DNA of 64,000 nt from a virus. The stretch lies in IMG/VR virus record IMGVR_UViG_3300020048_000085, one strand, 5' to 3'. Within the stretch, counting starts at the first letter, position 1, and each line of letters starts with the position of its first letter. Made by a program: the position numbers and the translations under genes. Positions 2,636 through 27,555 of this stretch are shown piece by piece. The notes below the pieces were generated by a model. That model saw only the letters and a program-made list of their open reading frames with translations, was not told where the DNA came from and ran no database searches.

Positions 2636-2951
2636 CGAAATAGAATCTTTAAAAGATGATTCAGAAAAAAATAACAAATTAATTGAATATTATAAAGACA
2701 AAGTTAAAATTAATAGTTGGCTAAATACAACAACAAAAAACTCAATAATAGCATTCAAAGATAGAATAGAATATAAAAAAAATAACAAATATCATAGATT
2801 AAATGGACCTGCTATTGATTTTAAGAATGAAGAAAAAGATAAATATTATTATAAAGGTAAATTATATGACACAAAAAAAGAATGGGAGAAAGTAACAATA
2901 AAAGAATTAAGAAAAATTAAAATTAAAAAATTAAATAAACAAAATGAATAA
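2622..2951 (+). CDS. Small protein with a MORN/YwqK-like repeat signature
   Basis: The segment HRLNGPAIDFKNEEKDKYYYKGKLYD resembles MORN_2 (YwqK-type) repeats of the form G-P-A...Y-x-N-G-K. It ends in KELRKIKIKKLNKQNE and is followed by a hairpin terminator. Confidence 0.35.
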   Translation: MSEFDEIESLKDDSEKNNKLIEYYKDKVKINSWLNTTTKNSIIAFKDRIEYKKNNKYHRLNGPAIDFKNEEKDKYYYKGKLYDTKKEWEKVTIKELRKIKIKKLNKQNE

Positions 2952-2982
2952 AAAAGCTCAGATTTAACTCTGAGCTTTTTTC
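2951..2982. terminator. Bidirectional intrinsic terminator between convergent genes
   Basis: Stem agctcaga / tctgagct (2955-2976) with loop tttaac, flanked by an A-run upstream and a T-run downstream. Confidence 0.6.
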
Positions 2983-3253
2983 ATTTCTTATATATTATAC
3001 AATATGGAGTATTATCACACAATTCTAATACATTTTGATATTTTTTTCTAACCAAATCTGGTTCTGGATTTGGATTTAAATCTGATAACGGTATTACTTT
3101 TTTCAATACTTTATAATTAATATCATTAGGTTCTCCTTTATATATTACTTTATCTATTTTATCTGATAATATAAAATTAACAATATCTTCATTTAATTTT
3201 ACCCTCTTATCATATGTTTTAAAATATATATTATCTTTAAGATTAATTTCCAC
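2981..3253 (-). CDS. Hypothetical protein (90 aa)
   Basis: ORF only. It sits directly next to the terminator hairpin. Confidence 0.4.
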   Translation of the reverse strand: MEINLKDNIYFKTYDKRVKLNEDIVNFILSDKIDKVIYKGEPNDINYKVLKKVIPLSDLNPNPEPDLVRKKYQNVLELCDNTPYCIIYKK

Positions 3254-3312
3254 TATGTTTCTTTTTTTCTTAATATATAATCATTTAGAAAAAAAGTTTA
3301 TATTGTAAGTTA

Positions 3313-3753
3313 TTATATATTGAATTTATTAACATCATAATAATATATAATATCATCATATGTCAAATTTTCAAACATAGCAACAACTTTATCATAATCA
3401 AACAATTTAATTTTTATTGTATCATATATCACGTATTCAACACCTCTTTCATGATGTTTATGCTCAATTTTTACTATTTTTTTAATATTATCTATTATAT
3501 AATCAATAATAAATCTATGTTTTTGTGAATCACCTCCTCGATAATTAGAAAATTCTACAATTATATCATCTTTTTGTTTTTTAAAATAAATTTCTGAATA
3601 TAAAAAACTACTATCTTTATTTTTCTCAAATCTAATACTTGTGCCTTTATATGCATAATAAACTTTATATCTTTGTCTTAAAAAATTAAACATAACTGTT
3701 ATTAAATCTACACAAAAAAAAGTACTCTCAAACAATTTAAACTTTTTTATCAT
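3313..3753 (-). CDS. Member of the N-terminal FKxFE paralog family (MIKKFKLFES... ...DVNKFNI)
   Basis: It has the shared N-terminal motif M-I-K-K-F-K-L-F-E and the shared C-terminal KFNI tail. Confidence 0.55.
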   Translation of the reverse strand: MIKKFKLFESTFFCVDLITVMFNFLRQRYKVYYAYKGTSIRFEKNKDSSFLYSEIYFKKQKDDIIVEFSNYRGGDSQKHRFIIDYIIDNIKKIVKIEHKHHERGVEYVIYDTIKIKLFDYDKVVAMFENLTYDDIIYYYDVNKFNI

Positions 3754-3762
3754 TATTAATTA

Positions 3763-4548
3763 TTAATTATTAATTATTTTATCAACATGAACATCACCTT
3801 TCATAATAACTTCAGATTCTTCTCCTCCAATAAATATAGCAACATCATCAAATAACACCTCTGAAACTAAAATTGTTTGTTTAGTTGAATATATTGGTTT
3901 AAATTGTTTTCCTCCAGTAAATATATATTTTGAAAATCTTTCTGCTTCATTTAAACTAGTTGTCCAACAAGAATATTCACTTTTAATATTTGGATTATAA
4001 TCACACTTCAGACCTCGATAAATTACAATTTTTTCTGGTATATTACCATCAAACATTTCGAATGCTGTTTTATAATTCCATTTATCAATATGTCTTGTTT
4101 TTGATATTTTATCTAATATATTAGTGAGTGCTCGTTGAGAATTAAAATGATCAACAATCAAATCACTTATTCTATCAAAAGATTTATCTATATTAGGGTT
4201 CTTATAACATACAAATAAACTATATGGTATTCTACTAATTTTGTATGATTTAGTATCATATTTTCTAAGCTCATTTTGTAATTTAAAAATATCACCAAAA
4301 GTTTTTACTCCAAAAAAATCATCAATTATCTTCTTACATTCAATTGTTGAGGTTATATATTCATTTCCAATACTAACACATGGAAACTTACTAAATGATT
4401 CCATACAATCAACACCCATTCTACTATCATTTATCCAATTTTTTATTAACATTTCTCCATTATAAACATAGTATAAAAAATACAACCAAGCAACATCACA
4501 ATATAATATCTCAGCCATTTTTTCAAATTTTTTAAATTCTATTATCAT
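3763..4548 (-). CDS. Putative mono-ADP-ribosyltransferase (R-S-E class) carrying the family N-terminal motif (MIIEFKKFEK)
   Basis: Ordered motifs are present: aromatic-Arg (VIYRG), an STS-like WTTSL, and GGEESEVIM (E-x-E) about 45 aa downstream. This is the R/STS/ExE triad of C3/iota/Alt-type ARTs. The call is by motif only. Confidence 0.45.
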   Translation of the reverse strand: MIIEFKKFEKMAEILYCDVAWLYFLYYVYNGEMLIKNWINDSRMGVDCMESFSKFPCVSIGNEYITSTIECKKIIDDFFGVKTFGDIFKLQNELRKYDTKSYKISRIPYSLFVCYKNPNIDKSFDRISDLIVDHFNSQRALTNILDKISKTRHIDKWNYKTAFEMFDGNIPEKIVIYRGLKCDYNPNIKSEYSCWTTSLNEAERFSKYIFTGGKQFKPIYSTKQTILVSEVLFDDVAIFIGGEESEVIMKGDVHVDKIINN

Positions 4549-4907
4549 TTTTTATTCTCTAATTTTTCATAAATTGAAGCTCCATATTTAGTATTGAATA
4601 TATCTTGTTTAGAAACAAAATAATCACCACTTGTAAATAAATAATCCAATCTAATATATTGAGCTAAGACTATTGATTTTTTAGATCCAGTCATCAAACT
4701 ATATCTTTTAGCAACATCAAACTCTGTAGTAAAAAATGTACCACTCTTAAATTTACCAGTATAAATAATCTTGTTAAAATTGTTTTTATTTGTACCATGA
4801 TATAAATAGATATAATAATTACCATCAATAACAATTTTATCTATACCACGTTTATTTATATTATCTAATAACATATCACTAATATAATCTTCAAATATCT
4901 TAATCAC
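4545..4907 (-). CDS. FKxFE-family protein (MIKIFEDY...) with a YHGT motif
   Basis: ATGA overlap with the downstream gene. LYHGTNKNNF resembles the H-G-[ST] nicotinamide-pocket motif of H-Y-E class ARTs and Tpt1/KptA enzymes. This is weak evidence. Confidence 0.4.
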   Translation of the reverse strand: MIKIFEDYISDMLLDNINKRGIDKIVIDGNYYIYLYHGTNKNNFNKIIYTGKFKSGTFFTTEFDVAKRYSLMTGSKKSIVLAQYIRLDYLFTSGDYFVSKQDIFNTKYGASIYEKLENKK

Positions 4908-5809
4908 ATGAAACTCTTTTTTTTAATTAATATATCAACATTTGATAAATAACCACTCTTAATATGAACATTACCATTATCTTCATATAATATATCTTCA
5001 TTCTCATATTCAAAATCAAAAATATATAAGTCATAATCATCTCTTGCTGCAGGTAAATTAATAAAATTATTATTTTTGCTTAAATACAAGTTATCATAAT
5101 CATATCCAATAACTAATTTTTCAATTTCACCATTTCTATTATCAAGTGGTATTATATTATCAACTAAACCAATATTTTTTATATTATTTGATTTTTTATA
5201 TCCTCTCCAATACAAACAATAACCATGATTTATAATTTTTATCTTATAATTTATAATACTATCAATCCAAGCATCATTTTTTTCAATTTTAATACCATCT
5301 TGAACATATATTTCACCAAAAATTTCCTTTATTTTTGGTATATATTCTTTAAAAAAACTAGGTAAATTTATTCTAGAATGATTAAAATGACCACCATCAC
5401 TATCAAACCAACCACAATGTTTCAAATGTTCAACTCGTTCTTTATTTATTATAAACTTATTAGTATATTTACGTATATTTGGAATCTTATTTGTTTTGAT
5501 TTGCTCTTCAAATTCTTGTAATCTTATCTTTTTTATTGAACCATAGCCTACCTCATTTGACGGATATGTAATTGGATTTATTTTAAACTTATCACTTAAT
5601 TTATCACCATCCAATTCCAATTTAAAAATAGAAACAGGTGAATCACCAATATAATAAGACATATTCTTATTTCTAGTTGTAGAAATATTTGAGAATTTAT
5701 ATGAACTCAACGAATTAGTACTCAATATATAATCACATTTCTCCAAATCAAAAATATGATATAATTTTCCTAATTTTTTACCTTCAAATAATTTAAAATT
5801 TGTAACCAT
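4904..5809 (-). CDS. FKxFE-family protein (MVTNFKLFEG...), 301 aa, function unknown
   Basis: It has the N-terminal family motif and an ATGA overlap with 4545..4907. A TATATATA-like element lies upstream of its start. Confidence 0.5.
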   Translation of the reverse strand: MVTNFKLFEGKKLGKLYHIFDLEKCDYILSTNSLSSYKFSNISTTRNKNMSYYIGDSPVSIFKLELDGDKLSDKFKINPITYPSNEVGYGSIKKIRLQEFEEQIKTNKIPNIRKYTNKFIINKERVEHLKHCGWFDSDGGHFNHSRINLPSFFKEYIPKIKEIFGEIYVQDGIKIEKNDAWIDSIINYKIKIINHGYCLYWRGYKKSNNIKNIGLVDNIIPLDNRNGEIEKLVIGYDYDNLYLSKNNNFINLPAARDDYDLYIFDFEYENEDILYEDNGNVHIKSGYLSNVDILIKKKSFM

Positions 5810-5877
5810 AATGTTTATATATTATTTTTTACATATAAGAAAATGTTTTTTTATATATATAAGAAAAAATCATTTTT

Positions 5878-8800
5878 GTGGACAATAAAAGTTTTTTATT
5901 CTTTAATAAAGAAGGGTATCCTCACAACTTCACATACGACACCAACACAGAAAGTTGGAATGGTAAAATAATATTTGACGAAAATTCTGATCAAACATTC
6001 AAAACTCAAAGTTTATATATTTTTGAAAGTGTTGAACCGATAACTTTTGATATTGATGCAGATTTAATAGAAATGAATTATCATAATAATAGTGGAATTA
6101 CCATTGTTTCTGATACAACGTACACAAATCAAGAAATTACAAACATAATAAAAACAAACGAATCTAGTGATTTTTATTCAAAATGGGTATATGGATTAGA
6201 TTTTCATAAGAAATTTCCAATAGGAACTGTAGTATATTTATCTGGTGTAACAGGAACAACATCCACAGATTTTAATGTTGATAATTATTTTACAGTTTTA
6301 GCAGTAAAAAAGAACGCATTTCTAATAGTAACTGAAACAAGTAATGATATATTTAACTTTAGTATATTATCTGGCTACACTAGCTCTCTGAATATGATAT
6401 CAATTAATGATTATAATAGAGATTTATCAACAAATAATACATTAATACAAAACTTATACCCAAATAAAAAGTTTTCAATCATAGATTCAATATCAAATGA
6501 TTCAATAGTAACTGTTAAACAATCTGGTATAACAACATCATATTTAAATGAGATTAAAATAGATGATGAAATAGATAAAATTTTTACATTATCTCTACAA
6601 CTTTTTACTCAAAAACCTATTTTATTACAAAATAATATAATATTATATTCAGACACAATTACAACTGGAACACTTAATGTTGGCAAATATGCTTATTTAT
6701 TATCACCAGAAATAATATACACAAACACTGGTCAAGATATAAGCAAAAAAACTGTTACATTTGAAGATGAACTAGGTAATCAATTATTTGGTGGAATTGA
6801 ATTTACTATAGATTCATTAATCACAGAATCTGTATTAGGCACTAAAGATTTAATATTTAAAACTTTCTATGATGAATCTAAAGTTAAATATAGATCATAT
6901 AGTGTTATAAGTAACACAACAAAATGGAACACAATTCAATATGATAATCAATTAGATATTAAAATTGGAGATATTATATCACTAAGCGGAGTAACAACAA
7001 GCGGAAACACTGGTGCTACTTACTTAATGAATAATAGAGAATTTAGTATAATAGATGTTATTTATGATCCAATTAAAAATACAACTATGTTATTTGTATC
7101 TGGTTATATTATAGATGAAAATAATTCTGCATATATAATAACTAAAAAATTACAATCTAATCAAATAAAAAGTGTAAATTTTAGTTCAAGTGGTGATATA
7201 TCACTATTTACTGGCAATACAAATAATGCATATTGTTATTCAACTTCAAATATATTAAATTACTCACAATCTTATATTAGTGGAAATACAAATAATATAT
7301 CATATGATACTATCACAGCATTTTTAAAAAAATATAAAAATGTTTTAAATACATATGGTATAGATGCTTATTATACATCAAGAAATAATACTGATTATTT
7401 ATCTGTTGAAAGTCTATATGGTGCAAAATATAATTATTTTTCAGTATCTGGTTATACAAATGATGTTAAAATAGTAGATAATTTTGATTTAAGTGTTAAT
7501 GGAACAACAAACAAATATGATATTATAATAAATGAAAAATTAATAAATGAAAAAACAAATAAATCAGACACTGGATTATATAAACCTGATGCACATTCTG
7601 AGATTGTTTTAAATTTACAAAGTGATAATGATAGATTTGGTTTTAAATTAACATTAAATAGTATAGAATATAGTATAGATTACTCAGTTGATAGTCAAAC
7701 CACAATTAATAACTTTATAAATATATACTATGACATTATGTATAGTAATGGTTATAATATTTATAGCGGTTATACTTCTGAATATAGTGGTTACACTCTA
7801 AATATACAATCAGATATCGATATTTGGAATTTAGAAATAATAACAAATATATTATCAACATATAAAATAATTGAAAATCAAAGAAATAAATCAATATTAC
7901 TTTCAGGTAATGAATTAAAAACAACAGCAGATTTATTCAACTTAGAATTATCAACAGGTATGTTATTGAAAATAACTGGTAGTACATATAACACTAACAA
8001 CAAAGAATATAATATCATATCATTAACTGAAAATAACATAACATTATCATACCAAGGTGTATTCACAAGTGATATTAACATCATAATCACTGGAACAACA
8101 AGAGAGTTCATTAGAAAACCTAGAGGTGATTATAATAGAGATGTATATCTTAATGTTTCTTGGAAAAAACCATATGAAAATAATATAGATGAATCAATAT
8201 TTTTTTATGATATATCAGGTGATCAATTAACACCTTATAATAATATTGAAAATTTAAGATATACAGGACCAACACCATTAATAAATTTAAATGAAAATAA
8301 TATTGTTATACTAAATAACGAAGCTAATAATAAAATATCAGAGGTTAATAATCCAAAAGCACAACAAACAATATTTAATGAACTCAATTTTAAATTAGAG
8401 CAATTAGATTCATCTCTTGCTTATGATTATATACCAGAACCATTAGAAATATTTTTCGGTTACAATTCAACTGAAGAAGGCTTTAACACAAAAACAATAA
8501 ATATTAAAAAACTAATAAAATCAGAAAATAACAATAATTATTTTTCGATTAGTGGATATACAAATCCAATATCATCAATATCATTAATTAATTTTACATT
8601 AATAGATAATATTATAAATATATCAGCACCAATTAATTTTAATTTTAAAAACTATTTTGAAATAGGACAACTTATAAAATTAGAATTTATTGATCAAAAT
8701 GAATATAAACAATTAATACAAGAAAATATTAACATATATAAAATTTCAGATATATCAAGAAATAAAATATATATTGACACAGAATATACATATGAAAATG

Positions 8801-10116
8801 AAACTGGTGATTATGTATATTCTGACTCAGGTTTTACATATTTTAATACAACTGGTAATACATATTATTATAAAATCGAGGTACAACCAAAAGAAATTTT
8901 ATCTTGTGTATTATATGGACAAACAGAAATAGAAGATATTAGATTTAAAGTAAATTTAAATAATCTTGGTGTACAATTAGAAGATGATATATATGAAATA
9001 TTATATCAATCTGATATAGAAGATAAAGCAATAGATTATATATTATTAAATAAGAAAAGAAAAGAAATGCTATTAAATTATAGAGAGATTTATGATTATG
9101 TAGGTTCATATAAAGCATTAATAAATGCCATAAACTTTTTTGGATATAATGATTTATATTTATATGAATATTATAGAAATATTAATAAATCATCAGCTCT
9201 ATATGGTAAATTACATAAAATATTAATTCCTGATATGTTTGATAATAGTGTACAAGGTTGGACAGAAACAGATTTTATTAGTGCTAAATATCAAAATAAT
9301 TTATCATGGAAGAAAACCAATTTATTTAACTTATCATATTCTATAACTGATAATGATGGTGATAATATATTAATATATTCATTAGATGAAGTGCAATATA
9401 AATTAACTAAATTAAAAACATGGTTAAGAAAACATATTATACCATTATCAACAAATTTAGTGGATATAACAGGCGTAGCTAATACTGAACAAACATTATA
9501 TCAAAATTATGATGAATCAAATCAAGTTAAAAAAACAGTAGTAAATAGAAAATCTACAGTTGTTAATTTCAATTATACATCTACTTTAAATTTTGGAACA
9601 GATTATTTAGTGACAGTTAATTTTTATGTATTATCTGGTACCACTGGTACAATTTTAGACAATAATGAAATTCCAAATGAATTTTCAGTTAAAATTAAAA
9701 CTTTTTATCTTTCAGGTGAAACATTTAATAACCCAACAGAAACTTTAATTCCTGTTCAATACATAAAATTACACAAAACAGATTTAACATCATTTAGTTT
9801 CAGTTTAAATAAAAATGTGGATCCATATATTTATATTGAAACAACAACTTATGATAATGATGGTAATGGTATTGGATATATTAATAACAAATTATTCTAT
9901 TATGATGAACCAAGAAATTATTGGTTAGTTAATCACAATTTTGATTTAACAAAAATGGTATACTTACAAACAGAAAATTATATTGATAATAATAAACAAA
10001 CAGACACACAAAATATTATATATGATAATAGTACATTAATACCATCATCAGTTGAAACTATTGTAAAGGTAAATACATTAAATCAAACATATATATCACA
10101 AATATCAACAAATTAA
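5878..10116 (+). CDS. Very large (about 1400 aa) N/T/S/Y-rich hypothetical protein, probably a virion structural protein; the start is uncertain (GTG at 5878, first in-frame ATG near 6070)
   Basis: Continuous 4.2-kb frame. A TATATATA element sits about 20 nt upstream of 5878. The composition is typical of phage fibre or baseplate proteins. No motifs were recognised. Confidence 0.55.
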   Translation: MDNKSFLFFNKEGYPHNFTYDTNTESWNGKIIFDENSDQTFKTQSLYIFESVEPITFDIDADLIEMNYHNNSGITIVSDTTYTNQEITNIIKTNESSDFYSKWVYGLDFHKKFPIGTVVYLSGVTGTTSTDFNVDNYFTVLAVKKNAFLIVTETSNDIFNFSILSGYTSSLNMISINDYNRDLSTNNTLIQNLYPNKKFSIIDSISNDSIVTVKQSGITTSYLNEIKIDDEIDKIFTLSLQLFTQKPILLQNNIILYSDTITTGTLNVGKYAYLLSPEIIYTNTGQDISKKTVTFEDELGNQLFGGIEFTIDSLITESVLGTKDLIFKTFYDESKVKYRSYSVISNTTKWNTIQYDNQLDIKIGDIISLSGVTTSGNTGATYLMNNREFSIIDVIYDPIKNTTMLFVSGYIIDENNSAYIITKKLQSNQIKSVNFSSSGDISLFTGNTNNAYCYSTSNILNYSQSYISGNTNNISYDTITAFLKKYKNVLNTYGIDAYYTSRNNTDYLSVESLYGAKYNYFSVSGYTNDVKIVDNFDLSVNGTTNKYDIIINEKLINEKTNKSDTGLYKPDAHSEIVLNLQSDNDRFGFKLTLNSIEYSIDYSVDSQTTINNFINIYYDIMYSNGYNIYSGYTSEYSGYTLNIQSDIDIWNLEIITNILSTYKIIENQRNKSILLSGNELKTTADLFNLELSTGMLLKITGSTYNTNNKEYNIISLTENNITLSYQGVFTSDINIIITGTTREFIRKPRGDYNRDVYLNVSWKKPYENNIDESIFFYDISGDQLTPYNNIENLRYTGPTPLINLNENNIVILNNEANNKISEVNNPKAQQTIFNELNFKLEQLDSSLAYDYIPEPLEIFFGYNSTEEGFNTKTINIKKLIKSENNNNYFSISGYTNPISSISLINFTLIDNIINISAPINFNFKNYFEIGQLIKLEFIDQNEYKQLIQENINIYKISDISRNKIYIDTEYTYENETGDYVYSDSGFTYFNTTGNTYYYKIEVQPKEILSCVLYGQTEIEDIRFKVNLNNLGVQLEDDIYEILYQSDIEDKAIDYILLNKKRKEMLLNYREIYDYVGSYKALINAINFFGYNDLYLYEYYRNINKSSALYGKLHKILIPDMFDNSVQGWTETDFISAKYQNNLSWKKTNLFNLSYSITDNDGDNILIYSLDEVQYKLTKLKTWLRKHIIPLSTNLVDITGVANTEQTLYQNYDESNQVKKTVVNRKSTVVNFNYTSTLNFGTDYLVTVNFYVLSGTTGTILDNNEIPNEFSVKIKTFYLSGETFNNPTETLIPVQYIKLHKTDLTSFSFSLNKNVDPYIYIETTTYDNDGNGIGYINNKLFYYDEPRNYWLVNHNFDLTKMVYLQTENYIDNNKQTDTQNIIYDNSTLIPSSVETIVKVNTLNQTYISQISTN

Positions 10117-13700: not shown

Positions 13701-14081
13701 ATGAAATATTTAAAAACTTTTGAATATAATTTATCAAACAAATCAATTTATTATAAAATAATAATTGATGGTTCATTTGATAAATTTACAATTGCTCTTG
13801 AAAAATTGGGTATGTTAGAATCTTTTTTATTTGATTGGGATATAAATGATTTTGATGATATTGAAGTAGAGAGTAAATATTTATTTTCTAATGAATATAT
13901 ATATTTAGCAATTGCTAAAAGTGAATATAGTAATAGAAGATATATTACTGATTTTACTCCAACCAATTTCATTGTCAGAAGATATATTACTGATTTTCCA
14001 GATTCTATACAAAAATTTGAATATGGTGGTGAAATAAAAATAGAAGATTATGAAATAGATTCAAAAAAATTTAATTTATGA
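13701..14081 (+). CDS. FKxFE/KKFNL family paralog (MKYLKTFEYN ... SKKFNL)
   Basis: It has both the N- and C-terminal family motifs and an ATGA overlap with the next gene. A TATATA element lies about 25 nt upstream. Confidence 0.6.
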   Translation: MKYLKTFEYNLSNKSIYYKIIIDGSFDKFTIALEKLGMLESFLFDWDINDFDDIEVESKYLFSNEYIYLAIAKSEYSNRRYITDFTPTNFIVRRYITDFPDSIQKFEYGGEIKIEDYEIDSKKFNL

Positions 14082-14422
14082 AACACATAAGATTATTTGA
14101 AGAGTTAGAATCACAATATAAAGTAGGTGATTATGTGTTAATTAAATATATACCTAAATCTAAATCATTATTAGAATTAATGAAATTTGTAAATAATTCA
14201 ATAGGTAAAATGATGTTTATTGATGAACGTAGTGTTATTTTAGAATATGTTGATATACCAGATAATATAAAGCATTATTTTAATGATAAAAATGTTGGAA
14301 ATAAAAAAATTAAAAATTCTGCTTTTTTTTGGTATCACAATAGTATAATAAATAGATTAGCTACTGAAGATGAGATAAAAGAATTTAAAGTTAAAAAAGA
14401 TTTAAATAAATTTAATTTATGA
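14078..14422 (+). CDS. FKxFE/KKFNL family paralog (MKHIRLFEEL ... LNKFNL) with a KVGDYV small-barrel motif
   Basis: Family motifs at both ends, with ATGA overlaps on both sides. Confidence 0.6.
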   Translation: MKHIRLFEELESQYKVGDYVLIKYIPKSKSLLELMKFVNNSIGKMMFIDERSVILEYVDIPDNIKHYFNDKNVGNKKIKNSAFFWYHNSIINRLATEDEIKEFKVKKDLNKFNL

Positions 14423-14820
14423 AATATATAAAAACATTTGAAAATAAAGAAAAATTTATAAAAATGACAGATAAGAATAAACTCAATAGAAACATTTATT
14501 ATTATTTGTTGTATGTGGATTCAATTGAAAAATTTGACTTCGCATTAGATAAAATAGGTATAAAAGATGATTTTTATGATGATATATGGGGTGCACAAGT
14601 TAATATTGATGAATATATTATACCTAAATTAGAAAAAGATAAAAAAATATATTTGAGTGTAGATTATTTTATTGAAAATTTTGACGTTTTTAATCATGAA
14701 CCAAGTGATGAAAAATTAGTATCACTGAGAGATGATAATGATAGAAAATGTAAAATAATATATGGTGGAGAGATATCAGTATATGATTATGAAATTATAG
14801 CAAATAAATTTAATTTATGA
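14419..14820 (+). CDS. FKxFE/KKFNL family paralog (MKYIKTFENK ... ANKFNL)
   Basis: Family motifs and ATGA overlaps. Confidence 0.6.
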   Translation: MKYIKTFENKEKFIKMTDKNKLNRNIYYYLLYVDSIEKFDFALDKIGIKDDFYDDIWGAQVNIDEYIIPKLEKDKKIYLSVDYFIENFDVFNHEPSDEKLVSLRDDNDRKCKIIYGGEISVYDYEIIANKFNL

Positions 14821-15158
14821 AACATATTAGAAAATTTAATGAGAAGAGACGACTAAAGACAGGAGATTATGTTTTAGTTAAATTAGATACTTATACACAA
14901 TCAACTGATAGAATTATACAAGCAAAAGAATATATAAACACACATATTGGTAAGTTGATTAATATAAATAATACTAGACTTGATGATGTTCGTATTGAAT
15001 ACAGAGATGTACCTGAACACATAAGAAGCTATTTTGGAACTTCTAACAAAGATGAAAATGCTTATTATAGATCAGTTGATATTGATAAAATAGTTGAATT
15101 TGGTTCAACACCAGAAGAATTAGAAGTATTTTTACAATCAAAAAAATTTAATTTATGA
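14817..15158 (+). CDS. FKxFE/KKFNL family paralog (MKHIRKFNEK ... SKKFNL)
   Basis: Family motifs and ATGA overlaps. It carries the TGDYVLVK motif. Confidence 0.6.
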   Translation: MKHIRKFNEKRRLKTGDYVLVKLDTYTQSTDRIIQAKEYINTHIGKLININNTRLDDVRIEYRDVPEHIRSYFGTSNKDENAYYRSVDIDKIVEFGSTPEELEVFLQSKKFNL

Positions 15159-15502
15159 AACACTTAATATTATTTGAAGATTTAAAAAAATCATCACCAA
15201 AATATAAAGTTGGAGATTATGTTCATATTGATATGGAACCAGATTTTGATTATGATGTTTGTTTAGCAAAAATTGTTGATGTTGATAATAATGGATTTTT
15301 AATTGAACCAGAAGATAAAGAAAGTAATGATTTTAACGATTATATTAACAAATATAATCCATTTCCATATTCAGTTAAATTTTATAAAAATGGCTGGAAT
15401 GTCGAAGAAAATTTAATAGATAGATATTTAACTGAAGATGAAATTGTATATTTTAATTTTTTAATAAAACATGGAACAGAAATAAAAAAATTTAATTTAT
15501 GA
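15155..15502 (+). CDS. FKxFE/KKFNL family paralog (MKHLILFEDL ... IKKFNL)
   Basis: Family motifs and ATGA overlaps. It carries the KYKVGDYVHID motif. Confidence 0.6.
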   Translation: MKHLILFEDLKKSSPKYKVGDYVHIDMEPDFDYDVCLAKIVDVDNNGFLIEPEDKESNDFNDYINKYNPFPYSVKFYKNGWNVEENLIDRYLTEDEIVYFNFLIKHGTEIKKFNL

Positions 15503-16300: not shown

Positions 16301-16621
16301 TTATAAATTGAATTTATTTGTAGCTAATAATAAATCAATATCTTCAAATTTCATTATTTTCCAATTTTCTCTATTTGTCCATTCATTATCATGGTATTTA
16401 TGAATAACAAAATCTAATCTTTTATTAGCAGCATCAATAGAGTCGAAATATGATATATTATCAATATTAATATCAATATCATTAATATTTTTTACTGTTA
16501 TAAAATCTTCTAAACCATGTCTACATAATAATAAAATTAAATAAATTTGTTCTATTGGACGATGTAAAATTAACACATATTTTTCTTTTTTCTTGAAAAT
16601 ATTAAATCTTTCTATTATCAT
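16301..16621 (-). CDS. FKxFE/KKFNL family paralog (MIIERFNIFKK ... ATNKFNL)
   Basis: Family end-motifs. Confidence 0.55.
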   Translation of the reverse strand: MIIERFNIFKKKEKYVLILHRPIEQIYLILLLCRHGLEDFITVKNINDIDINIDNISYFDSIDAANKRLDFVIHKYHDNEWTNRENWKIMKFEDIDLLLATNKFNL

Positions 16622-16624
16622 AAG

Positions 16625-17239
16625 TTATAAATTAAATTTATTTGCATCAAATAAATATGAATATTCTTTTTTTATTCTATAATGTATTTTCTCATCTTTA
16701 AATATTTTAATAAACTCAGAAGTATGCATTTCAATAAACACCTTTTGAAAATTATAATCAGTATTATAACTAAAATAATTAAAATTAGATATATCAGCAT
16801 TATTTTCTAATAAATATATAGCAACATCCCAATAATTATTTAATGCTGATGTCATTAGTGGTGATACATTACTATCATTTGATATATCTATATTTGCGCC
16901 ATTCTCAACCAACAATTTAACTATATCTAAATATCCATTATGAGCTGCTACATATAATGGAGTTGCATTAATACTATTGAAACTATTCACATTAGCATGA
17001 TATTTAATCATCAATTTAACTAATTTGATATCAGCAATATATACAGATAATGATAACATATTACCATAACAATTATTGTCATCATATATATTTGGATTAG
17101 CTCCATTTTTTAATAAATATTCAACTTTTTTTAAATTTGGTTTATTTAAACTAGCCACACTATTAATAAAATATAATAGATAGTCAATTAAATATTTAGT
17201 TTTATCTATATATTTTTCAAATTGCTTAATATATTTCAT
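16625..17239 (-). CDS. Ankyrin-repeat protein that is also a member of the FKxFE/KKFNL family (MKYIKQFEKY ... ANKFNL)
   Basis: It has at least three canonical ANK repeats, for example TPLYVAAHNGYLDIVKLLVENGANIDISNDSNVSPLMTSALNNYWDVAIYLLENNADI. Confidence 0.7.
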   Translation of the reverse strand: MKYIKQFEKYIDKTKYLIDYLLYFINSVASLNKPNLKKVEYLLKNGANPNIYDDNNCYGNMLSLSVYIADIKLVKLMIKYHANVNSFNSINATPLYVAAHNGYLDIVKLLVENGANIDISNDSNVSPLMTSALNNYWDVAIYLLENNADISNFNYFSYNTDYNFQKVFIEMHTSEFIKIFKDEKIHYRIKKEYSYLFDANKFNL

Positions 17240-17583
17240 AGATTGAATTTCTTTAAGTTTTTATTTATTTCTAATTCTTCTAATGTCTTTCCAGTTGCAA
17301 CAACATCAGAATATTTAAAACTTTTTATTCCACAATTATTTTTTTTGTCAATGAAAAACATTTTTAAATCATCTGGAATATTATCATATTTAACATAAAT
17401 TCTATACCATTGGTTTGATGGTTTTGCATAATCATCAAGTAAAAAACTATCAATTATTCCAATTGTATTATTTATAAAATTTCTCAAATCAATTAATATT
17501 TCACTCGGATAATTCGTTAATATATAATCACCAACAGAAAATTCTGGTATCATATTTTCAAATATTTTAAATTGTGTTATCAT
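17236..17583 (-). CDS. FKxFE/KKFNL family paralog (MITQFKIFEN ... LKKFNL)
   Basis: Family motifs and ATGA overlaps. Confidence 0.6.
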   Translation of the reverse strand: MITQFKIFENMIPEFSVGDYILTNYPSEILIDLRNFINNTIGIIDSFLLDDYAKPSNQWYRIYVKYDNIPDDLKMFFIDKKNNCGIKSFKYSDVVATGKTLEELEINKNLKKFNL

Positions 17584-18005
17584 ATATTAAATTTTTTTGA
17601 ATTTGTAATATATTTTGGTGTTTTATTTATAGCACGTTTAAATACATAAAATACATATTTAGTTATTGGATCACCAATATTATCTATTCTTGCATTATCT
17701 AAAATATATTTTATTTTATCATATAATAATATATCTTTTTCAAATTCTACGATTATTAATTCAATAGCATATTTTTTTACTTCATTGCGTATTCTATCGT
17801 CTATTTTATTATTTCCTTTTTTCCATGTGTTTGAACTGTAATATAAATTATATAATATAGAAAATATATAACTAAATTCTTCTGGTACCTTAAATATATT
17901 TTGAATAAATGATGTATCTTTTTTATACATTCTATCATAATAATTTAAATAATAATCAACCATAGATTGATCATATTTTTCAAATATTTTAAATTGTGTT
18001 ATCAT
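17580..18005 (-). CDS. FKxFE family paralog (MITQFKIFEK ... SKKFNI)
   Basis: Family motifs and ATGA overlaps. Confidence 0.6.
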   Translation of the reverse strand: MITQFKIFEKYDQSMVDYYLNYYDRMYKKDTSFIQNIFKVPEEFSYIFSILYNLYYSSNTWKKGNNKIDDRIRNEVKKYAIELIIVEFEKDILLYDKIKYILDNARIDNIGDPITKYVFYVFKRAINKTPKYITNSKKFNI

Positions 18006-18436
18006 AAATTAAATTTTTTAGCGTTCTCAATTAAAATCAACTTGTTTATTATATCTTTTTTTCTAGGTGGAATATAACCATAAATTGTAAATGGTGAATT
18101 AACATCAACTGAGTGAATAATATGTTCATCATTTTTTAAAATTAAATCTAATGATACAAACTCTTTTACTCTTTTTTTAGCTGTTCCTGTATAACCAATA
18201 CCACATCGTTCAACTTTACTAATAATACCATTATGTTTATTTTCATAATCAACAAGTACCTTTTTAATATTATTAAAAGAATATTTACTATAAAATTTAA
18301 CATTAGTACCAGGAATCAATAAATCAGTTAGAAATTTTTTAATTTTTGTATAACTACCATTATAATATTCTAATAATGTATTTAACATAAATGTTATTTC
18401 TTCTTGTGTATCAAATGAATCAAATTTAGTAATCAT
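18002..18436 (-). CDS. FKxFE/KKFNL family paralog (MITKFDSFDT ... AKKFNL)
   Basis: Family motifs and ATGA overlap. Confidence 0.6.
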   Translation of the reverse strand: MITKFDSFDTQEEITFMLNTLLEYYNGSYTKIKKFLTDLLIPGTNVKFYSKYSFNNIKKVLVDYENKHNGIISKVERCGIGYTGTAKKRVKEFVSLDLILKNDEHIIHSVDVNSPFTIYGYIPPRKKDIINKLILIENAKKFNL

Positions 18437-18442
18437 ATAATT

Positions 18443-18826
18443 TTATTTTTTTCTTAAATATGAAAAAACAACATCAAAAAATATTAGTTTAATACAAAAT
18501 GCTATTATAACCCATAAGAATGAAAAATTTAATACTATTATAATAGAAGCAATAATCATTAATAATTCAGATAAAAACCAAAATAAATGCCACGCATCAG
18601 TAAAAATAACAAATATAGTAGTACTACCTAAAAATTTTTCACCACTATGTGGATCATTATTTTTATATTTATTTAATGAACCTAATCCTTGCTCCCAAAA
18701 ATTTGGATTTAAATGATATTTCAAATATAATTTAGATTTATAAAATAAATTAGGAGATGATGATAAATCAGTAATTGATTTTGCAACTCCAGATAGGAAC
18801 AATAGTATTATAATTAATATTATCAT
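18443..18826 (-). CDS. Predicted small integral membrane protein (at least 3 hydrophobic helices)
   Basis: MIILIIILLFLSGVAKS... followed by a long hydrophobic C-terminal stretch. It is embedded in the paralog array. Confidence 0.4.
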   Translation of the reverse strand: MIILIIILLFLSGVAKSITDLSSSPNLFYKSKLYLKYHLNPNFWEQGLGSLNKYKNNDPHSGEKFLGSTTIFVIFTDAWHLFWFLSELLMIIASIIIVLNFSFLWVIIAFCIKLIFFDVVFSYLRKK

Positions 18827-18828
18827 AT

Positions 18829-19248
18829 TTATAAATTGAATTTTTTTGTTTCTTTATTTATATTTATTTCATCTATGATATCTTTAATATCATCAGGAAT
18901 AATACCATAAATATTCATTGGAGAATTTGTGTCTACATCATGTTTATATCTTATTCCTTTTAATTTTATTGTTAAAAAAATATAGTTAAATTCTTTATTA
19001 AAACCATAACCAAATCCCCTCACAACACCTTTATGTTGTTTATTTGAGTGCATGAAATAATTTAATCCTTTAATATCTTCTGTGCATTTTTTACATTCGA
19101 ATTTAATAACATTATTTTTAATTTCAAGTAATTTAAATATAAAATCACTTATAGATTCATTATCACCATTAAAATAACCAATAATATCATTTATTGTTAA
19201 TGTTACTTTATTTCCTGTATTTTCAAATAATTTGAATTGAGTTATCAT
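18829..19248 (-). CDS. FKxFE/KKFNL family paralog (MITQFKLFEN ... TKKFNL)
   Basis: Family motifs. The element ttatatatac lies immediately upstream of its ATG on the minus strand. Confidence 0.6.
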   Translation of the reverse strand: MITQFKLFENTGNKVTLTINDIIGYFNGDNESISDFIFKLLEIKNNVIKFECKKCTEDIKGLNYFMHSNKQHKGVVRGFGYGFNKEFNYIFLTIKLKGIRYKHDVDTNSPMNIYGIIPDDIKDIIDEININKETKKFNL

Positions 19249-20792: not shown

Positions 20793-23700
20793 ATGAAAAT
20801 TGTACACTTGGCTGATGTTCATATCAGAAATATTGAAAGACATGATGAATACAATACTATTTTTAGTAAAATAGTAAATAAATTAAAAGAATTAAAACCA
20901 GATAGAATAGTTATAGTTGGTGATTTGTTTGAAAGTTATATTGAAATTTCAAATGAAGCACAAATTATTGCAGGATTTTTTTTGACTGAATTATCTAAAA
21001 TTGCTAAAGTTATAATTACTCGTGGTAATCATGATATTCGTAAAAAGAATATAAACAGAGTAGATAGTATAGAAACAGTTATAAAATTGCTCAATAATAA
21101 AAATATTAATTACTATGATAAAACTGGTTTTTATGATGATGAAGATGATTTTGTTTGGGTTGTATATGAACACGCAGACAAATTAAATAATCCTTGGTCA
21201 AATAAGAAAAAAGAAGATGATAAAATATATATTGGTTTATTTCATGATCCAATTTTAAACGTCACGTCTAATACAGGTAGAATATTTAATGATTCTGCTA
21301 AATATAAAAATATTAATTATTTTAAAAATAATAATTTTTTGATGATTGGTGATATCCATAAACGCCAATTTTTAAGAGAAAATAAATCTGCTGCATATTG
21401 TGGTTCAACAATTCAACAAACATTTGGAGAAACAGTTGAAAAACATGGTTTCCTATTATGGGATATAAAATCATCTACTGATTTTGATATTACTGAATGT
21501 GATATTAAAAATGAATATACATTAATAAATTTATTTGTTGATGAAAATTCTGATTATGATAACTTAAATTTATCTGCAGATAATATTGGATTATATCCTG
21601 AATTTAAAGTACATTGGAAAGATTATTCTTCTAATATTAACACAGTAAATGAAAAAAAGATACGAGATTATATTAAAGAAAAATTTAATACAACTCAAGT
21701 AATTTTTGATAAAACTTATTTATATACAGATGTTTTATCATCTAAAATGCTTTCAGAATCTATTGATTTGACAGATGCTCAAACACAAAGAGAAATATTT
21801 GAAGAATATTTAAAAGAGCAAAAATATAAAACAGATGATATTGAATCAATACTTAATATTGATGATATTATTAATAGTAGAATTCAATTAACAGAACAAT
21901 TAAAAAATAATGAATGGAGTATTGATAAATTTTGGTTCAGCAATTTTAAATCTTATGGTGATGATAATGTTGTTGATTGGAGTGATATTTCAGGTTTAGT
22001 ACAAATTCATGGAGAAAATCAAGAAGGTAAAACTACAATTCTTGATGCTCTTATGTATATACTATATGGTAAAACAACCACAACATTAAGTCCAGAAAAA
22101 TTTGGAGATAATAGATATATAAACAATAAAAGGGATTTAAATAGTGTTAGTGGTGGAGCAATAATTAGTACTAATGGTAATAAATTTGTTATTCAAAGAA
22201 GCACAGAAAGAGTTTGGAATAAAAATAAAACTGCTTTAAGTGGTTGTCCAACTGTGTTAGATTTTTATAAGAGTGATGTTATTTGTGAAGAAAATAAGAT
22301 AACTGGTGAGCTTAAAAGTACAACACAAAAAGAATTAGATATAATATTAGGTGATTTGAAAGATTTCATTAGACTATCATTCACAAATGCTGATAATTTA
22401 AATGATTTATTATCTGAAACTAGAAGTGTGTTTATGGATAGTATTATTAGAGATGCTGGATATGATATATTTGAGACTAAATTAAATGAATTTAAGGAAT
22501 ATAAGAAAGAATTAACAGAAGAAAAATTAATAATTAATATTCAAGATTCTGAATTAACAATAGCTGATTTGAAATCTGATATTGATAGTAAGAGAGAAGA
22601 TATAAAGATTAATGATATTCAAATAATAGAATTTGTTGTTGATTTAAAAACAAATAATAAAAGTAGAGATAATTTAAATAAAAATTTAAATAATATTGAT
22701 TCTTCTATGATTAATTTTGATGAGGATTTGAATTTAAATTCAATTGAAAATTACAAAGATAAAATTGAAGAAGCGAAAATACAAACAACTATTTTAAATA
22801 GAGAAATTGATAAATTACCAGATAATTTTGATCCAACTAAATTAAATGAGTATAAAATTAAGTTAAAACAAACAAACAATAAAATATCTGAAAGGAAAGA
22901 TGAAATATCAAATCTTAGAAGATCATTAACAGAATCAGACAATAAAATAGATAAGGTAGATTCTAAAATAGTAGAATTGAAACAATCTGAAATTAAAAAG
23001 ATTTCTTTGAAAATTAGTGATAATGAATTAAATATTGAAGTTATTAAGAACAAAAAAGAGAATATAATAAAAGATGAATTAAAACAATTAACATCATCTA
23101 TTCAAAAAATTGAATTGGATAAAAGTGAAATAACATCTCAAATGAAACTATTACAACGAGATGGTGTAAATTCTAAAAAGTCGAATGATGAATTAGATAA
23201 AGAAATTGAAACCTTTAGAGATTCAAAATCTTGTCCAAGTTGTGGTCGTGATTATGATAAAAATGATCCAAAATATTCAGAGCACATATTACATTTAGAA
23301 GAAAAAATTAAAAGTCTTGAAAATAAAAAAGATGCTAATGATTTAATAATTCAAAAAAGTCTAAGTGAATATAATAAATTGAAATTGTCTATATCTGATT
23401 TTGATGATAAAATATCAAAATTAAAAGATAATAAAGATGATATAATAAAAGGAGTTTACTCAGAAGATATTCTAACTAAATTGAAAGTTGTTGGTAGTAG
23501 TAACCAATTAAAACAAGATAATATTGATTTAAATATATTAATAAATAATATAGAAAATGATAAATTTGAAAATTTAGATTCATTAAAAGAAAATATTGAA
23601 AAAGGTAATAAATTAAAAGAAAATATTGAAAAAAGTAAATCAGATACATTATTAGTCATAAAAAATATTGAATCAGAATTAAAAAATTTTGATATAGATG

Positions 23701-24542
23701 GTATTGAAAATGATATATCTATTGAAGAAACAAACAGAGATAATTTTGAATTAAGAAATAAAAAAGTTTCAAAGAAAGATAATATACAATTAACTATTGA
23801 AAATTTTAATTTAAAAATTAAAGATTTAAATTCAGAAATTGATAAATATCAATCACACAAAATTAAAATAGAAGAAAATAAACTAATACAAGATGATATT
23901 GATGAAATTGATAAAAAGATAACATCTATTAATGATGAAATTAAAAAATTAGAACAAGATAATATCAACAAGGAAAAGGATATGCTTCTTAAGCAAAATG
24001 AGATTCATTTAATTGTAACTAAAATTGAAAAGTATTTAGAACAAAAGAAAAAAGAAGAATTGCTGAAAGAATATCAGAAATGTATATCAAGAGATGGTTT
24101 ACCAACATTCTTATTGAAAAAATCTATTCATCTAATCAATAAAGAAATGTCTGAATTGTTAGTTAATGTTGATTTTACTTTATTTTTTGATGAAAATTTA
24201 ATATTAAGACTTAGTGCAAATGATAGATTGGATGTTAGTCAAAATGCAATTGAGAGTTCAGGTAAAGAAAGAACATTCTGTGCATTAGCACTTAAAATTT
24301 CATTAAGACAAATAAATGTAAAATCAAAACCAACATTTATAGTATTAGATGAAATAATGGGGAAATTAATTGATGGTAAAAAAACCAAATCAATAGAGCA
24401 ATTTGCAAATTTCTTAGATGATTTAAAACACAAAGTAAATAAAATAATAATAATTGAACATGTGCATAATATAAATTATGATGCATTAATTGAAGTTGAA
24501 AAAGATGAAAATTTAATTTCACATTTGGAATTAAATTATTAA
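20793..24542 (+). CDS. sbcCD: Single-polypeptide SbcD(Mre11)-SbcC(Rad50) fusion, a DNA double-strand-break processing nuclease/ATPase
   Basis: N-terminal calcineurin-like phosphoesterase motifs (DVH, VGDLF, RGNHD). These are followed by the Rad50/SbcC Walker A GENQEGKTT, a long coiled coil with a CPSCGR zinc hook, and a C-terminal Walker B/D-loop FIVLDEIMGKL. Confidence 0.8.
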   Translation: MKIVHLADVHIRNIERHDEYNTIFSKIVNKLKELKPDRIVIVGDLFESYIEISNEAQIIAGFFLTELSKIAKVIITRGNHDIRKKNINRVDSIETVIKLLNNKNINYYDKTGFYDDEDDFVWVVYEHADKLNNPWSNKKKEDDKIYIGLFHDPILNVTSNTGRIFNDSAKYKNINYFKNNNFLMIGDIHKRQFLRENKSAAYCGSTIQQTFGETVEKHGFLLWDIKSSTDFDITECDIKNEYTLINLFVDENSDYDNLNLSADNIGLYPEFKVHWKDYSSNINTVNEKKIRDYIKEKFNTTQVIFDKTYLYTDVLSSKMLSESIDLTDAQTQREIFEEYLKEQKYKTDDIESILNIDDIINSRIQLTEQLKNNEWSIDKFWFSNFKSYGDDNVVDWSDISGLVQIHGENQEGKTTILDALMYILYGKTTTTLSPEKFGDNRYINNKRDLNSVSGGAIISTNGNKFVIQRSTERVWNKNKTALSGCPTVLDFYKSDVICEENKITGELKSTTQKELDIILGDLKDFIRLSFTNADNLNDLLSETRSVFMDSIIRDAGYDIFETKLNEFKEYKKELTEEKLIINIQDSELTIADLKSDIDSKREDIKINDIQIIEFVVDLKTNNKSRDNLNKNLNNIDSSMINFDEDLNLNSIENYKDKIEEAKIQTTILNREIDKLPDNFDPTKLNEYKIKLKQTNNKISERKDEISNLRRSLTESDNKIDKVDSKIVELKQSEIKKISLKISDNELNIEVIKNKKENIIKDELKQLTSSIQKIELDKSEITSQMKLLQRDGVNSKKSNDELDKEIETFRDSKSCPSCGRDYDKNDPKYSEHILHLEEKIKSLENKKDANDLIIQKSLSEYNKLKLSISDFDDKISKLKDNKDDIIKGVYSEDILTKLKVVGSSNQLKQDNIDLNILINNIENDKFENLDSLKENIEKGNKLKENIEKSKSDTLLVIKNIESELKNFDIDGIENDISIEETNRDNFELRNKKVSKKDNIQLTIENFNLKIKDLNSEIDKYQSHKIKIEENKLIQDDIDEIDKKITSINDEIKKLEQDNINKEKDMLLKQNEIHLIVTKIEKYLEQKKKEELLKEYQKCISRDGLPTFLLKKSIHLINKEMSELLVNVDFTLFFDENLILRLSANDRLDVSQNAIESSGKERTFCALALKISLRQINVKSKPTFIVLDEIMGKLIDGKKTKSIEQFANFLDDLKHKVNKIIIIEHVHNINYDALIEVEKDENLISHLELNY

Positions 24543-25700: not shown

Positions 25701-26855
25701 ATGGTAATAAACGTAAAGAGTGAGACTGCAATGTCTGGATTTTATATTATATTTAAAGGATCAACTATGAATGAAAAACCTGGTTGGTATGGAATTAGTC
25801 ACCTATGTGAACATATTCTTTGTAAGGCTATATTTCATTTACAAGATACATATCAACAAAAAAATATAAAATGGAATGCATATACTTCGGTAGATACTGT
25901 AGTTTTTTATATGACAGGGATTGATAGACACATAAACAAATATAAAAATGATTTTTTAAATTTATTATTAGATTTTAAACCTACACAAAAACAATTGGAT
26001 AATGAAAAGAAAATTGTTTTAGAAGAGTATAAAATGAGTTTCAATTCACAAATTGAATCTCACTATTTTAATTTACAGAGAAAGATGTTAAGTTATTATA
26101 ATCCTATTGGACTCAGATCTGATATTGAAAATATAACATTACAAGATTGTAATGATTATTTAGATTTATATTTTAAGAATCCAACAAAAATAATAAATGT
26201 ATCAAAATTTAATGATTTTGAAACAGATATAAAATTCAAAGTTGAGATAGATGTTAAACCATTTGAATTTAAAATAAATGATAATTTGTATATTATAACA
26301 TCTGACGATAATACAGATGTACCTAAAGGTATGATACCATTAGAAATTATCACAGAATTTAAAAATAAAGTTAGTATAATTGATGTCTCAACTATGCTTA
26401 CAAAAGATTTTGCATATGCATCATTTGTGTGTGAGATGTTAAGTTCAGGTTTAAATTCTCCATTATATAAAGAGGTTAGAGAAAAATTAGGATTAGTTTA
26501 TTACATAAGTTGTTCATTAGATAAATTAAATGATAAATCTTGTTCAATAAGTATTATCACTAACACATCTAAAAATAATATTGAACGTGTACAACATGAG
26601 ATAAAGAATATATTACAAAACAAAGAAATATATTTAACTCAAGAAAGATTTGATATCATAAAAGATAAGCAACTCACAAAAATTGAAGAAAATGAGATTT
26701 TAAATAATAATATTTCTAAATATATGGAAAATCCTGAATGGATGATTGAAAATATTATAAACACTATAACATTAGATGATGTGTATAGAGTGGTTGATGA
26801 ATATCTAAATTGGGATAATATGTATAAATCTGTAGATATTAATGAATTTTCTTAA
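25701..26855 (+). CDS. M16-family (insulinase/pitrilysin/MPP-like) zinc metallopeptidase
   Basis: An inverted zinc-binding motif HxxEH in the typical context GISHLCEHILCK, close to the N-terminus. The size is consistent with one M16 active unit. Confidence 0.55.
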   Translation: MVINVKSETAMSGFYIIFKGSTMNEKPGWYGISHLCEHILCKAIFHLQDTYQQKNIKWNAYTSVDTVVFYMTGIDRHINKYKNDFLNLLLDFKPTQKQLDNEKKIVLEEYKMSFNSQIESHYFNLQRKMLSYYNPIGLRSDIENITLQDCNDYLDLYFKNPTKIINVSKFNDFETDIKFKVEIDVKPFEFKINDNLYIITSDDNTDVPKGMIPLEIITEFKNKVSIIDVSTMLTKDFAYASFVCEMLSSGLNSPLYKEVREKLGLVYYISCSLDKLNDKSCSISIITNTSKNNIERVQHEIKNILQNKEIYLTQERFDIIKDKQLTKIEENEILNNNISKYMENPEWMIENIINTITLDDVYRVVDEYLNWDNMYKSVDINEFS

Positions 26856-27324: not shown

Positions 27325-27555
27325 ATGAAAAAAATAATAATAAATTATATTTTATATGTTTATCACAATTATATTCAAAATGATGAATTTGATAATATAT
27401 ATAAAGAGTGGGCTAAACCTTTTATGATGGTACTTAAATATATACACAATGTATACATGTGGATATTTTGTATTATATTTTTTCCAGTTATTTTAATCTT
27501 AATGATGATTGATAGCTATATGAAAAAAAATAGAAAAAAAATAAAAAAATTATGA
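27325..27555 (+). CDS. Small hydrophobic protein between clpS and the unfoldase gene
   Basis: 76 aa with a predicted TM helix (IFCIIFFPVILILMMI). It is tightly packed with ATGA-type overlaps on both sides. Confidence 0.35.
   Translation: MKKIIINYILYVYHNYIQNDEFDNIYKEWAKPFMMVLKYIHNVYMWIFCIIFFPVILILMMIDSYMKKNRKKIKKL

Follow-up and report, generated by a model that had tools for sequence, protein, structure and literature searches.

The internal proteins of bacteriophage T4 are a diverse set whose only common part is an N-terminal capsid-targeting sequence (CTS) (PMC3012670, PMC9026906). The first 10 residues suffice for encapsidation, with positions 4 and 7 serving targeting, positions 8 and 10 serving processing, and cleavage occurring after a glutamate (PMC9026906). 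The T4 ADP-ribosyltransferase (ART) Alt loses a 7-residue N-terminal propeptide and is trimmed at its C-terminus too (PMC9026906), and phage ARTs in general are often packaged in the head (PMC9503650). Here we describe a cluster of four genes at positions 3313-5809 of a 64,000-nucleotide (nt) stretch (the window) of IMG/VR virus record IMGVR_UViG_3300020048_000085. The product of each gene begins with a short related peptide, which we call the tag. Three of the four products, of 301, 120 and 261 amino acids (aa), are very probably ART-fold enzymes, judging from structure models and motifs.

A reading of this DNA made from its letters alone (the sequence-only reading) had reported four consecutive tagged genes on the minus strand. 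The same four tightly packed open reading frames (ORFs) fill the cluster in our ORF call, and an independent gene caller recovered them on the European Nucleotide Archive copy of the contig. Neighbouring tagged genes overlap by 4 nt or are separated by gaps of 10 nt. Because of this tight spacing downstream of a divergent intergenic region, and because the genes share an end at a terminator-like hairpin, the four tagged genes and an untagged 90-aa gene form a single operon (2950-5877).

The 261-aa protein carries the motifs VIYRG (residues 175-179), WTTSL (195-199) and GGEESEVIM (241-249) in the order that the sequence-only reading had picked out, and they are conserved in its homologues. Across 24 homologues of 41-63% identity there is no variation at Y177, R178, G179, W195 and T196 and almost none at T197, E244 and E246; the ExE motif is missing from only one member of the alignment, the truncated sequence P0019. 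A profile search of 1.84 billion representatives gave 77 representative clusters (50% identity) for the family. All full-length distant members that were read retain [YF]RG, SW[TS]xS and ExE[VI][VIL], and the remainder of their sequence has diverged (matches to E ~1e-4). At the level of sequence, chance is excluded as the origin of the ordered R/S/E triad. One match of the distant search, P0124, was discarded as spurious, being a cadherin-repeat protein. Two metagenomic proteins (P0077 and P0082; 496 or 1027 aa) contain regions that look kinase-like by eye, fused to a 261-type module of helical domain plus ART.

An AlphaFold model of the 261-aa protein, based on the 24-sequence alignment, has a predicted local distance difference test (pLDDT) score of 90.3 and a predicted template modelling score of 0.82. 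Residues with pLDDT below 50 are confined to positions 1-11. Behind the tag, the model comprises a helical domain (residues 12-165) and a C-terminal domain (approximately residues 168-261) of seven strands and one helix, which has the split beta-sheet, NAD+-binding core of the ART fold. R178 lies within the first strand of the C-terminal domain (173-180), W195-T196 stand at the end of the second strand (192-196) before helix 199-207, and E244-x-E246 opens a later strand (246-250). The position of the canonical S-T-S motif is taken by a variant, [S/C]-W-T-[TSL]-[SD], which is placed as in ARTs and is non-canonical in sequence. A Foldseek search of BFVD matched the model to a protein of Tenacibaculum phage PTm1 (E 2.7e-5) and to MuF 'head morphogenesis' polyvalent proteins. 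Structure prediction and Foldseek, which had been put forward as a check on the ART assignment, returned an ART fold in a confident model, and we conclude that the 261-aa protein represents a new, compact family of predicted R-S-E-type ARTs. The signature had been described as of the C3/iota/VIP2/T4-Alt type. This label is valid for motif order and fold only, since profile comparisons linked the family to none of C3, iota, VIP2, Alt and Mod. In toxins, a strict ExE motif, as opposed to QxE, indicates an arginine acceptor. For the 261-aa ART we predict an arginine acceptor too, on the model of ExE toxins and T4 Alt/Mod.

The 301-aa protein is modelled as an H-type ART, with a fold closest to Tpt1 and DarT, followed by a beta-rich domain. 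Its model has a pLDDT of 90.2, and the tag residues are the sole disordered stretch. The N-terminal domain has the fold of the Tpt1 ART domain, and its best structural matches are Tpt1 and DarT, which are nucleic-acid-directed ARTs. The catalytic tetrad of Tpt1 is Arg-His-Arg-Arg. Conserved residues in the 301-aa family, which comprises at least 35 clusters at 90% identity, are Y17, H18, S43-T44-T45-R46, E99, E101 and E102. An assignment to the DarT (DUF4433) toxins was considered and rejected on motifs, domain order and context; the protein shows no profile membership, and there is no DarG-like antitoxin in an adjoining gene.

The 120-aa protein is predicted from its sequence to be a minimal H-Y-E-type ART related to ART-PolyVal and PARP. 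It matches the Pfam family ART-PolyVal (PF18760) with an E-value of 4.3e-5 and 24.7 bits, under the gathering cut-off of 31.2. All four members of its family match ART-PolyVal (E ~4e-5), three match PARP weakly, and YHGT, GT[FW]F (56-59) and G[DE]YF[VI] (94-98) are conserved in the four. The motif region also aligns with the H...Y region of PARP16, an alignment that is not significant. Homologues of the 120-aa protein begin with MIIEFKIYEDYI or MIKNFKIYEDYL. A 375-aa tagged protein encoded far from the cluster (50653-51780, minus strand; MKYLKTFEK...VLYHGSPYLF) matches ART-PolyVal weakly (E 0.0045) and is a fourth tagged ART-like protein. When hhalign was used to compare the three ART families with one another, and the 120-aa protein with the 375-aa protein, nothing significant emerged; these proteins are not recent paralogues. 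Searches of Pfam, PHROGs, PADLOC and NCBIfam gave no match for the 146-aa protein, nor did the phage collection or IMG/VR, and the sole homologue found, at 29% identity, is encoded at the same locus in contig L010. Nothing points to an enzyme or toxin in this protein. The proposal of a cluster of toxin-like enzymes is supported for three of the genes, as predicted enzymes, and unsupported for the fourth, and it understated the case in that both the 301-aa and the 120-aa neighbours of the 261-aa protein are also ART-fold proteins, from other clades. Coordinates are collected in Table 1.

Table 1. Features of the tagged-gene operon and its flanks, with the gene content of the locus in the window and two relatives. 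Positions refer to the window.
Feature	Position	Strand	Details
1412-aa flanking gene (locus anchor)	5878..10116	+	Conserved; links the window to Mahaphage, Lak and Tenacibaculum jumbo phages
Divergent intergenic region, 68 nt	5810..5877	.	Between operon (-) and 1412-aa gene (+); presumed promoter region; TATATA[AT] motifs present
301-aa tagged protein	4904..5809	-	N-terminus MVTNFKLFEG; tag residues 1-9 (MVTNFKLFE) at 5783-5809
301-aa protein, N-terminal ART-fold domain	5435-5776	-	Residues ~12-125; LYH 16-18, ISTTR 42-46, E-F-E-E 99-102
301-aa protein, C-terminal beta-rich domain	4907-5434	-	
120-aa tagged protein	4545..4907	-	GTG start; N-terminus MIKIFEDYIS; short tag M-IKIFE at 4890-4907
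120-aa protein, ART motifs			YHGT 36-39, GTFFT 56-60, GDYFV 94-98
261-aa tagged protein	3763..4548	-	N-terminus MIIEFKKFEK; tag residues 1-9 at 4522-4548
261-aa protein, helical N-terminal domain	4054-4515	-	Residues 12-165; winged-helix-like matches
261-aa protein, C-terminal minimal R-S-E ART domain	3766-4047	-	Residues 168-261
261-aa protein, catalytic motifs	4012-4026; 3952-3966; 3802-3828	-	R178 in VIYRG; T196 in WTTSL; E244/E246 in GGEESEVIM
146-aa tagged protein	3313..3753	-	N-terminus MIKKFKLFES; tag at 3727-3753; C-terminal NKFNI at 3316-3330
Untagged 90-aa gene, last of operon	2981..3253	-	Kept by relatives (72-86% identity) at distal edge of variable locus
Bidirectional intrinsic-terminator-like hairpin	2950..2981	.	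13-bp stem, A/T runs on both flanks; operon end
Locus content, window			301-120-261-146
Locus content, L010 (235-kb contig)			120-146-301 plus untagged 353-aa gene
Locus content, L001 (501-kb contig)			261, 170-aa tagged protein, then 301

The tag has a K-x-F-E core. A loose rule for it matches 18 of the 92 N-termini in the window (about 16 of them clear), against about 1 expected from internal positions, and this frequency is not chance. Two tag lengths are present: MK[YH][IL][KR]xFE, whose positions 4, 7 and 8 are L/I, F and E, and MI[TIK]xFKxFE, with F at positions 5 and 8 and E at 9. The tagged proteins are otherwise unrelated and include ARTs, an ankyrin-repeat protein, uncharacterised proteins and one with kinase-like motifs (by eye only). 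The tag behaves as a module. Its variants swap between orthologues: the tag of the 301-aa protein is MVTNFKLFE in the window, and its L001 counterpart is MKYLKYFE. Two unrelated ART families carry near-identical tags in other genomes (MKNYNNFILE, MKNYNNFLLE), and the spacing between the terminal Glu and the first folded residue is nearly constant in both. The tag is also present in the 735-kb phage LR756501 and in a relative of 33% G+C. Elsewhere in the window, tagged-gene arrays at 13701-15502 (plus strand) and 16301-19248 (minus strand) hold 5 and 6 small genes, one of which (16625-17239) encodes an ankyrin-repeat protein (Ank_2, E 5e-27). Several of the other array proteins have K-V-G-D-Y-V right behind the tag; the rest have no Pfam match.

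The operon occupies a locus that is variable between conserved flanks. The 1412-aa and 90-aa flank genes stay in relatives (62-86% identity), and the cassettes between them vary (Table 1). In three further contigs (L012, L013 and L014), 301-type genes lie elsewhere, inside other tagged-gene arrays, and in L014 the 301-type gene adjoins a 120-type gene. Contigs that carry homologues of the cluster genes reach lengths of 501 kb and 678 kb, and a megablast search of the region against phage genomes gave no match. The 170-aa tagged protein of L001 (10822-11334), encoded between two ART genes, has kinase-like D-L-x-x-x-N ... D-L-G motifs by eye only. The same contig has a 404-aa TnpB/OrfB-like ORF (4206-5420; C-terminal zinc-finger motif, by eye) inserted beside its 1401-aa anchor gene; the window lacks this ORF.

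Over 97% of its length, the 1412-aa protein shares 38% identity with a protein of the 735-kb uncultured phage LR756501, with weaker matches in 634-642-kb phages, Prevotella Lak phages and Tenacibaculum jumbo phages (PTm1). The Mahaphage clade, to which these phages belong, has predicted Bacteroidetes hosts (PMC7162821), and Lak and PTm1 have been assigned to a jumbo-phage group with a gp23-type capsid (PMC7824862). The tie of the window to the Lak/PTm1 group rests on the 1412-aa protein. L003, a 92-kb viral contig of 33% G+C, carries a 123-aa ORF (4658-5029) that by eye looks like the late sigma factor gp55 of T4. It also has a 261-type ART and several tagged genes, a hint that T4-like lineages other than the huge phages have the tag as well.

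The account that we favour, by a little over even, is that this operon supplies tagged ART-fold enzymes that are packaged and injected against the host in a T4-like manner. It builds on what is directly observed, namely the genes, the enrichment of the tag, the folds, the conserved catalytic motifs and the variability of the cassettes. In this account the tag would be an amphipathic peptide of 8-9 residues with a terminal Glu that docks proteins on the prohead core, much as the T4 capsid-targeting sequence does. A gp21-type protease would cut behind the Glu of the tag, and the mature enzymes would be ejected along with the DNA and ADP-ribosylate host proteins, nucleic acids or both at the onset of infection. 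Enzymatic activity, its targets, packaging, cleavage and injection are thus what we infer. For packaging through the tag, taken by itself and by analogy with the T4 propeptide, we see an even chance at best. A T4-like propeptide is favoured because the tag resembles the CTS, because the relatives Lak and PTm1 are classed as gp23-type and because phage ARTs are known to be packaged in heads. The tags share with the CTS a common peptide of 8-10 residues, hydrophobic or aromatic residues at the targeting positions and a Glu at the processing site. Variability of the locus between conserved flanks resembles that of the T4 internal proteins and also counts in its favour.

Several results weigh against this account. 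No capsid, scaffold or prohead-protease genes were found in the window, and about half of the tags, no more, fit the L/I-x-E cleavage rule of T4. T4-like records filled the listed matches of a tblastn search with gp21 for the Mahaphage/Lak protease, so that this search counts on neither side. For the 261-aa family, no Pfam match was obtained with the protein itself, 24 family members or 10 distant relatives; neither the protein nor any of its 24 homologues was recognised by PHROGs, PADLOC or NCBIfam; sequence and profile searches of the PDB were negative; and hhalign of the family against T4 ModA, ModB and Alt gave probabilities below 1%. Winged-helix matches are interleaved with ART matches in the structural search with its model, and S-T-S is replaced by [S/C]-W-T. 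Likewise, none of the 32 members of the 301-aa family matched Pfam or NCBIfam, and PADLOC, PHROGs and PDB sequence searches with this family gave no ART family. Both ART families are missed by current profile libraries. Finally, conservation of the tag could lie partly at the level of DNA or of the cassette.

This last point bears on the strongest alternative, which we consider possible and clearly less probable than the account above. It holds that the three ARTs are real but act unpackaged inside the infected cell, like T4 ModA/ModB or the anti-defence protein AcrF11, and that the common N-terminus is no capsid signal; it may serve translation initiation or the mRNA in an AT-rich system of the Bacteroidota type, or may have been left by cassette recombination at conserved gene junctions. 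The ending [KN]KFN[LI]-stop is common to twelve tagged proteins, the 146-aa protein among them, whose interiors are unrelated, and in tandem arrays this C-terminal motif and the next tag form a conserved junction of ~40 nt, aaaaaatttaatttATGAAA..., which overlaps the next ATG (aaaaaatttaatttATGAaa). Given the conserved junction and the KFN[LI] motif, recombination of cassettes or signals for expression could account for some of the conservation. The motif is also present where the next gene is untagged, and the three ARTs are without it. Candidate roles are a signal or propeptide at the C-terminus, or a repeat at cassette junctions. Action within the cell would also agree with the differing order and content of cassettes among relatives and with the lack of head genes in the window. 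Against it, the tag is preserved as amino acids in relatives of 31-33% G+C despite different codons, and where its sequence varies the hydrophobic/aromatic spacing and the terminal Glu stay. The tag is also found on operon-first genes that have no upstream cassette (4904-5809, 39367-39837 and 50653-51780), it is structurally apart from the folded domains in the models, and it agrees with the experimentally defined positions of the T4 CTS (PMC9026906).

A second alternative, which we regard as improbable, is that the C-terminal domain of the 261-aa protein is a relic of the ART fold or a non-transferase, such as an NAD+ glycohydrolase or a binding module, with convergent R/S/E residues, and that there is no arsenal for ADP-ribosylation. 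The absence of profile-level homology to ART families, the very small size of the domain (~90 residues) and the [S/C]-W-T variant all speak for it. However, relatives below 30% identity keep the Arg, the S/T motif and the two Glu of ExE with little or no change, and such constancy across a diverged family argues for retained catalysis. The small active ARTs TreX, TreTu, AcrF11 and Tne2, which are similarly small, also appear among the structural matches.

Least probable, although KptA is known from jumbo phages (PMC9503650), is that the 301-aa protein is an RNA-repair 2'-phosphotransferase (a Tpt1/KptA orthologue) and no offensive effector, a candidate that we rejected on motifs, domain order and context: its 32 family members without a Pfam or NCBIfam match have, by the same token, none to the Tpt1/KptA models, its LYH, ISTTR and ExEE motifs differ from the Tpt1 tetrad, its ART domain is N-terminal with the beta-rich domain behind and no winged helix in front, and its gene is tagged and lies among other tagged ARTs.

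The favoured account of tagged, packaged and injected enzymes can be taken further. In an extended form of T4-like targeting, the N-terminal peptide, often together with a C-terminal K-K-F-N-L, would mark about 1 gene in 5, and the phages would inject dozens of effectors drawn from shuffled cassette loci, including at least three unrelated ARTs per genome. We offer this extension as a speculative one and think it rather unlikely as a whole. A two-ended signal of this kind has a partial precedent, since both termini of T4 Alt are processed.

If the favoured account is true, it would add at least two ART families to those covered by current profile libraries, and it would mean that the largest known phages stack chemically different ARTs, directed at proteins and possibly at nucleic acids, in one operon. 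The tag would then offer a simple rule, at the level of sequence, by which the proteins that uncultured megaphages probably inject could be listed, and would make host takeover by megaphages testable without cultivation. Engineering would also gain a portable tag for packaging and ART domains as compact as ~90 residues.

The window has a G+C content of ~22%, and its other genes include those for a ClpB-like ATPase, an SbcCD-like fusion, an M16 peptidase, an NAD-dependent ligase, an SPFH protein, an S1-domain protein, a homing endonuclease and a SIR2 protein. The 1249-aa fusion ORF (20793-24542, plus strand) joins an Mre11/SbcD-like phosphoesterase to an SbcC/Rad50-like ATPase (PHROG 35725, E 6e-51). 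The M16 protein, of the insulinase/processing-peptidase family, and a full ClpB-like double-AAA+ unfoldase are encoded a few kb apart (25701-26855 and 27552-30095, both plus strand), and the M16 peptidase could in principle be an alternative enzyme for removing the tag. Further functions that use NAD+ are the SIR2-family protein (E 3e-40; 54053-54718, plus strand) and the NAD-dependent DNA ligase (59916-61787, plus strand). The motif TATATA[AT] occurs within 60 nt upstream of the start codons of 26 of the 92 genes, against ~12 expected from motif density. It precedes the first gene of each tagged array, with examples at 5821-5827 and 5857-5867, and is a candidate promoter element for tagged and untagged genes alike. 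A scan for sigma-70 promoters was uninformative in the AT-rich window (46 sites against 36 expected).

Compared with known systems, the 301-aa protein resembles Tpt1/KptA and DarT in the fold of its N-terminal domain and in having a His in the first strand. It differs from them in its motifs and domain order, in lacking a profile match and in having no DarG-like antitoxin next to it. In the 120-aa and 375-aa proteins, the region that matches the ART-PolyVal profile is H-G-[ST] ... G-T-[FW]-F, and the BFVD matches of the 261-aa model include MuF-fused polyvalent proteins, for which a role as injected effectors has been predicted. In those systems the domains are parts of one giant polypeptide, whereas here they are separate small tagged genes, and the Pfam scores are below threshold.

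Comparison with T4 Alt brings out both likenesses and differences. By eye, the ordered motifs LYRS, VSTSL and EMEVIL of Alt correspond to IYRG, WTTSL and ESEVIM of the 261-aa protein, and both proteins have a short N-terminal peptide before the folded part, the Alt peptide MELITELFDE (F8-D9) resembling the tag MITQFKIFE. The parallel with Alt drawn in the sequence-only reading, a targeting tag joined to an effector, is a reasonable one and extends to the T4 internal proteins. Unlike the 261-aa protein, Alt has 682 aa and a different N-terminal domain, and hhalign (probability below 1%) detects no homology between the two. The catalytic domain of the 261-aa protein is also much more compact, with motifs spaced by 19 and 48 residues against ~24 and ~73 in Alt. 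Alt is known to be packaged in the head, whereas packaging of the 261-aa protein is proposed.

A close likeness of the tagged set as a whole is to IPI, IPII and IPIII, the internal proteins of T4, which are unrelated proteins with only an N-terminal peptide of 8-10 residues in common and are encoded at variable loci. The tag and the T4 CTS have the same layout, M-K-x-hydrophobic-K/Q-x-F...E, as a comparison of N-termini illustrates: MKTYQEFIAE in IPII/IPIII and MKTFKEFTS in IPI, next to MKYLKTFE in the window and MKTFNEFINE in an ORF of L001. The two systems differ in scale, since a handful of proteins are tagged in T4 and about 1 gene in 5 in the window. They also differ in make-up, the window having two tag lengths (MK-type and MI-type), a C-terminal KFN[LI] on many tagged proteins and several enzyme classes as cargo. 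T4 already provides the concept of a phage ART that is tagged and probably injected; the ART families, their stacking in one operon and the scale of tagging are new.

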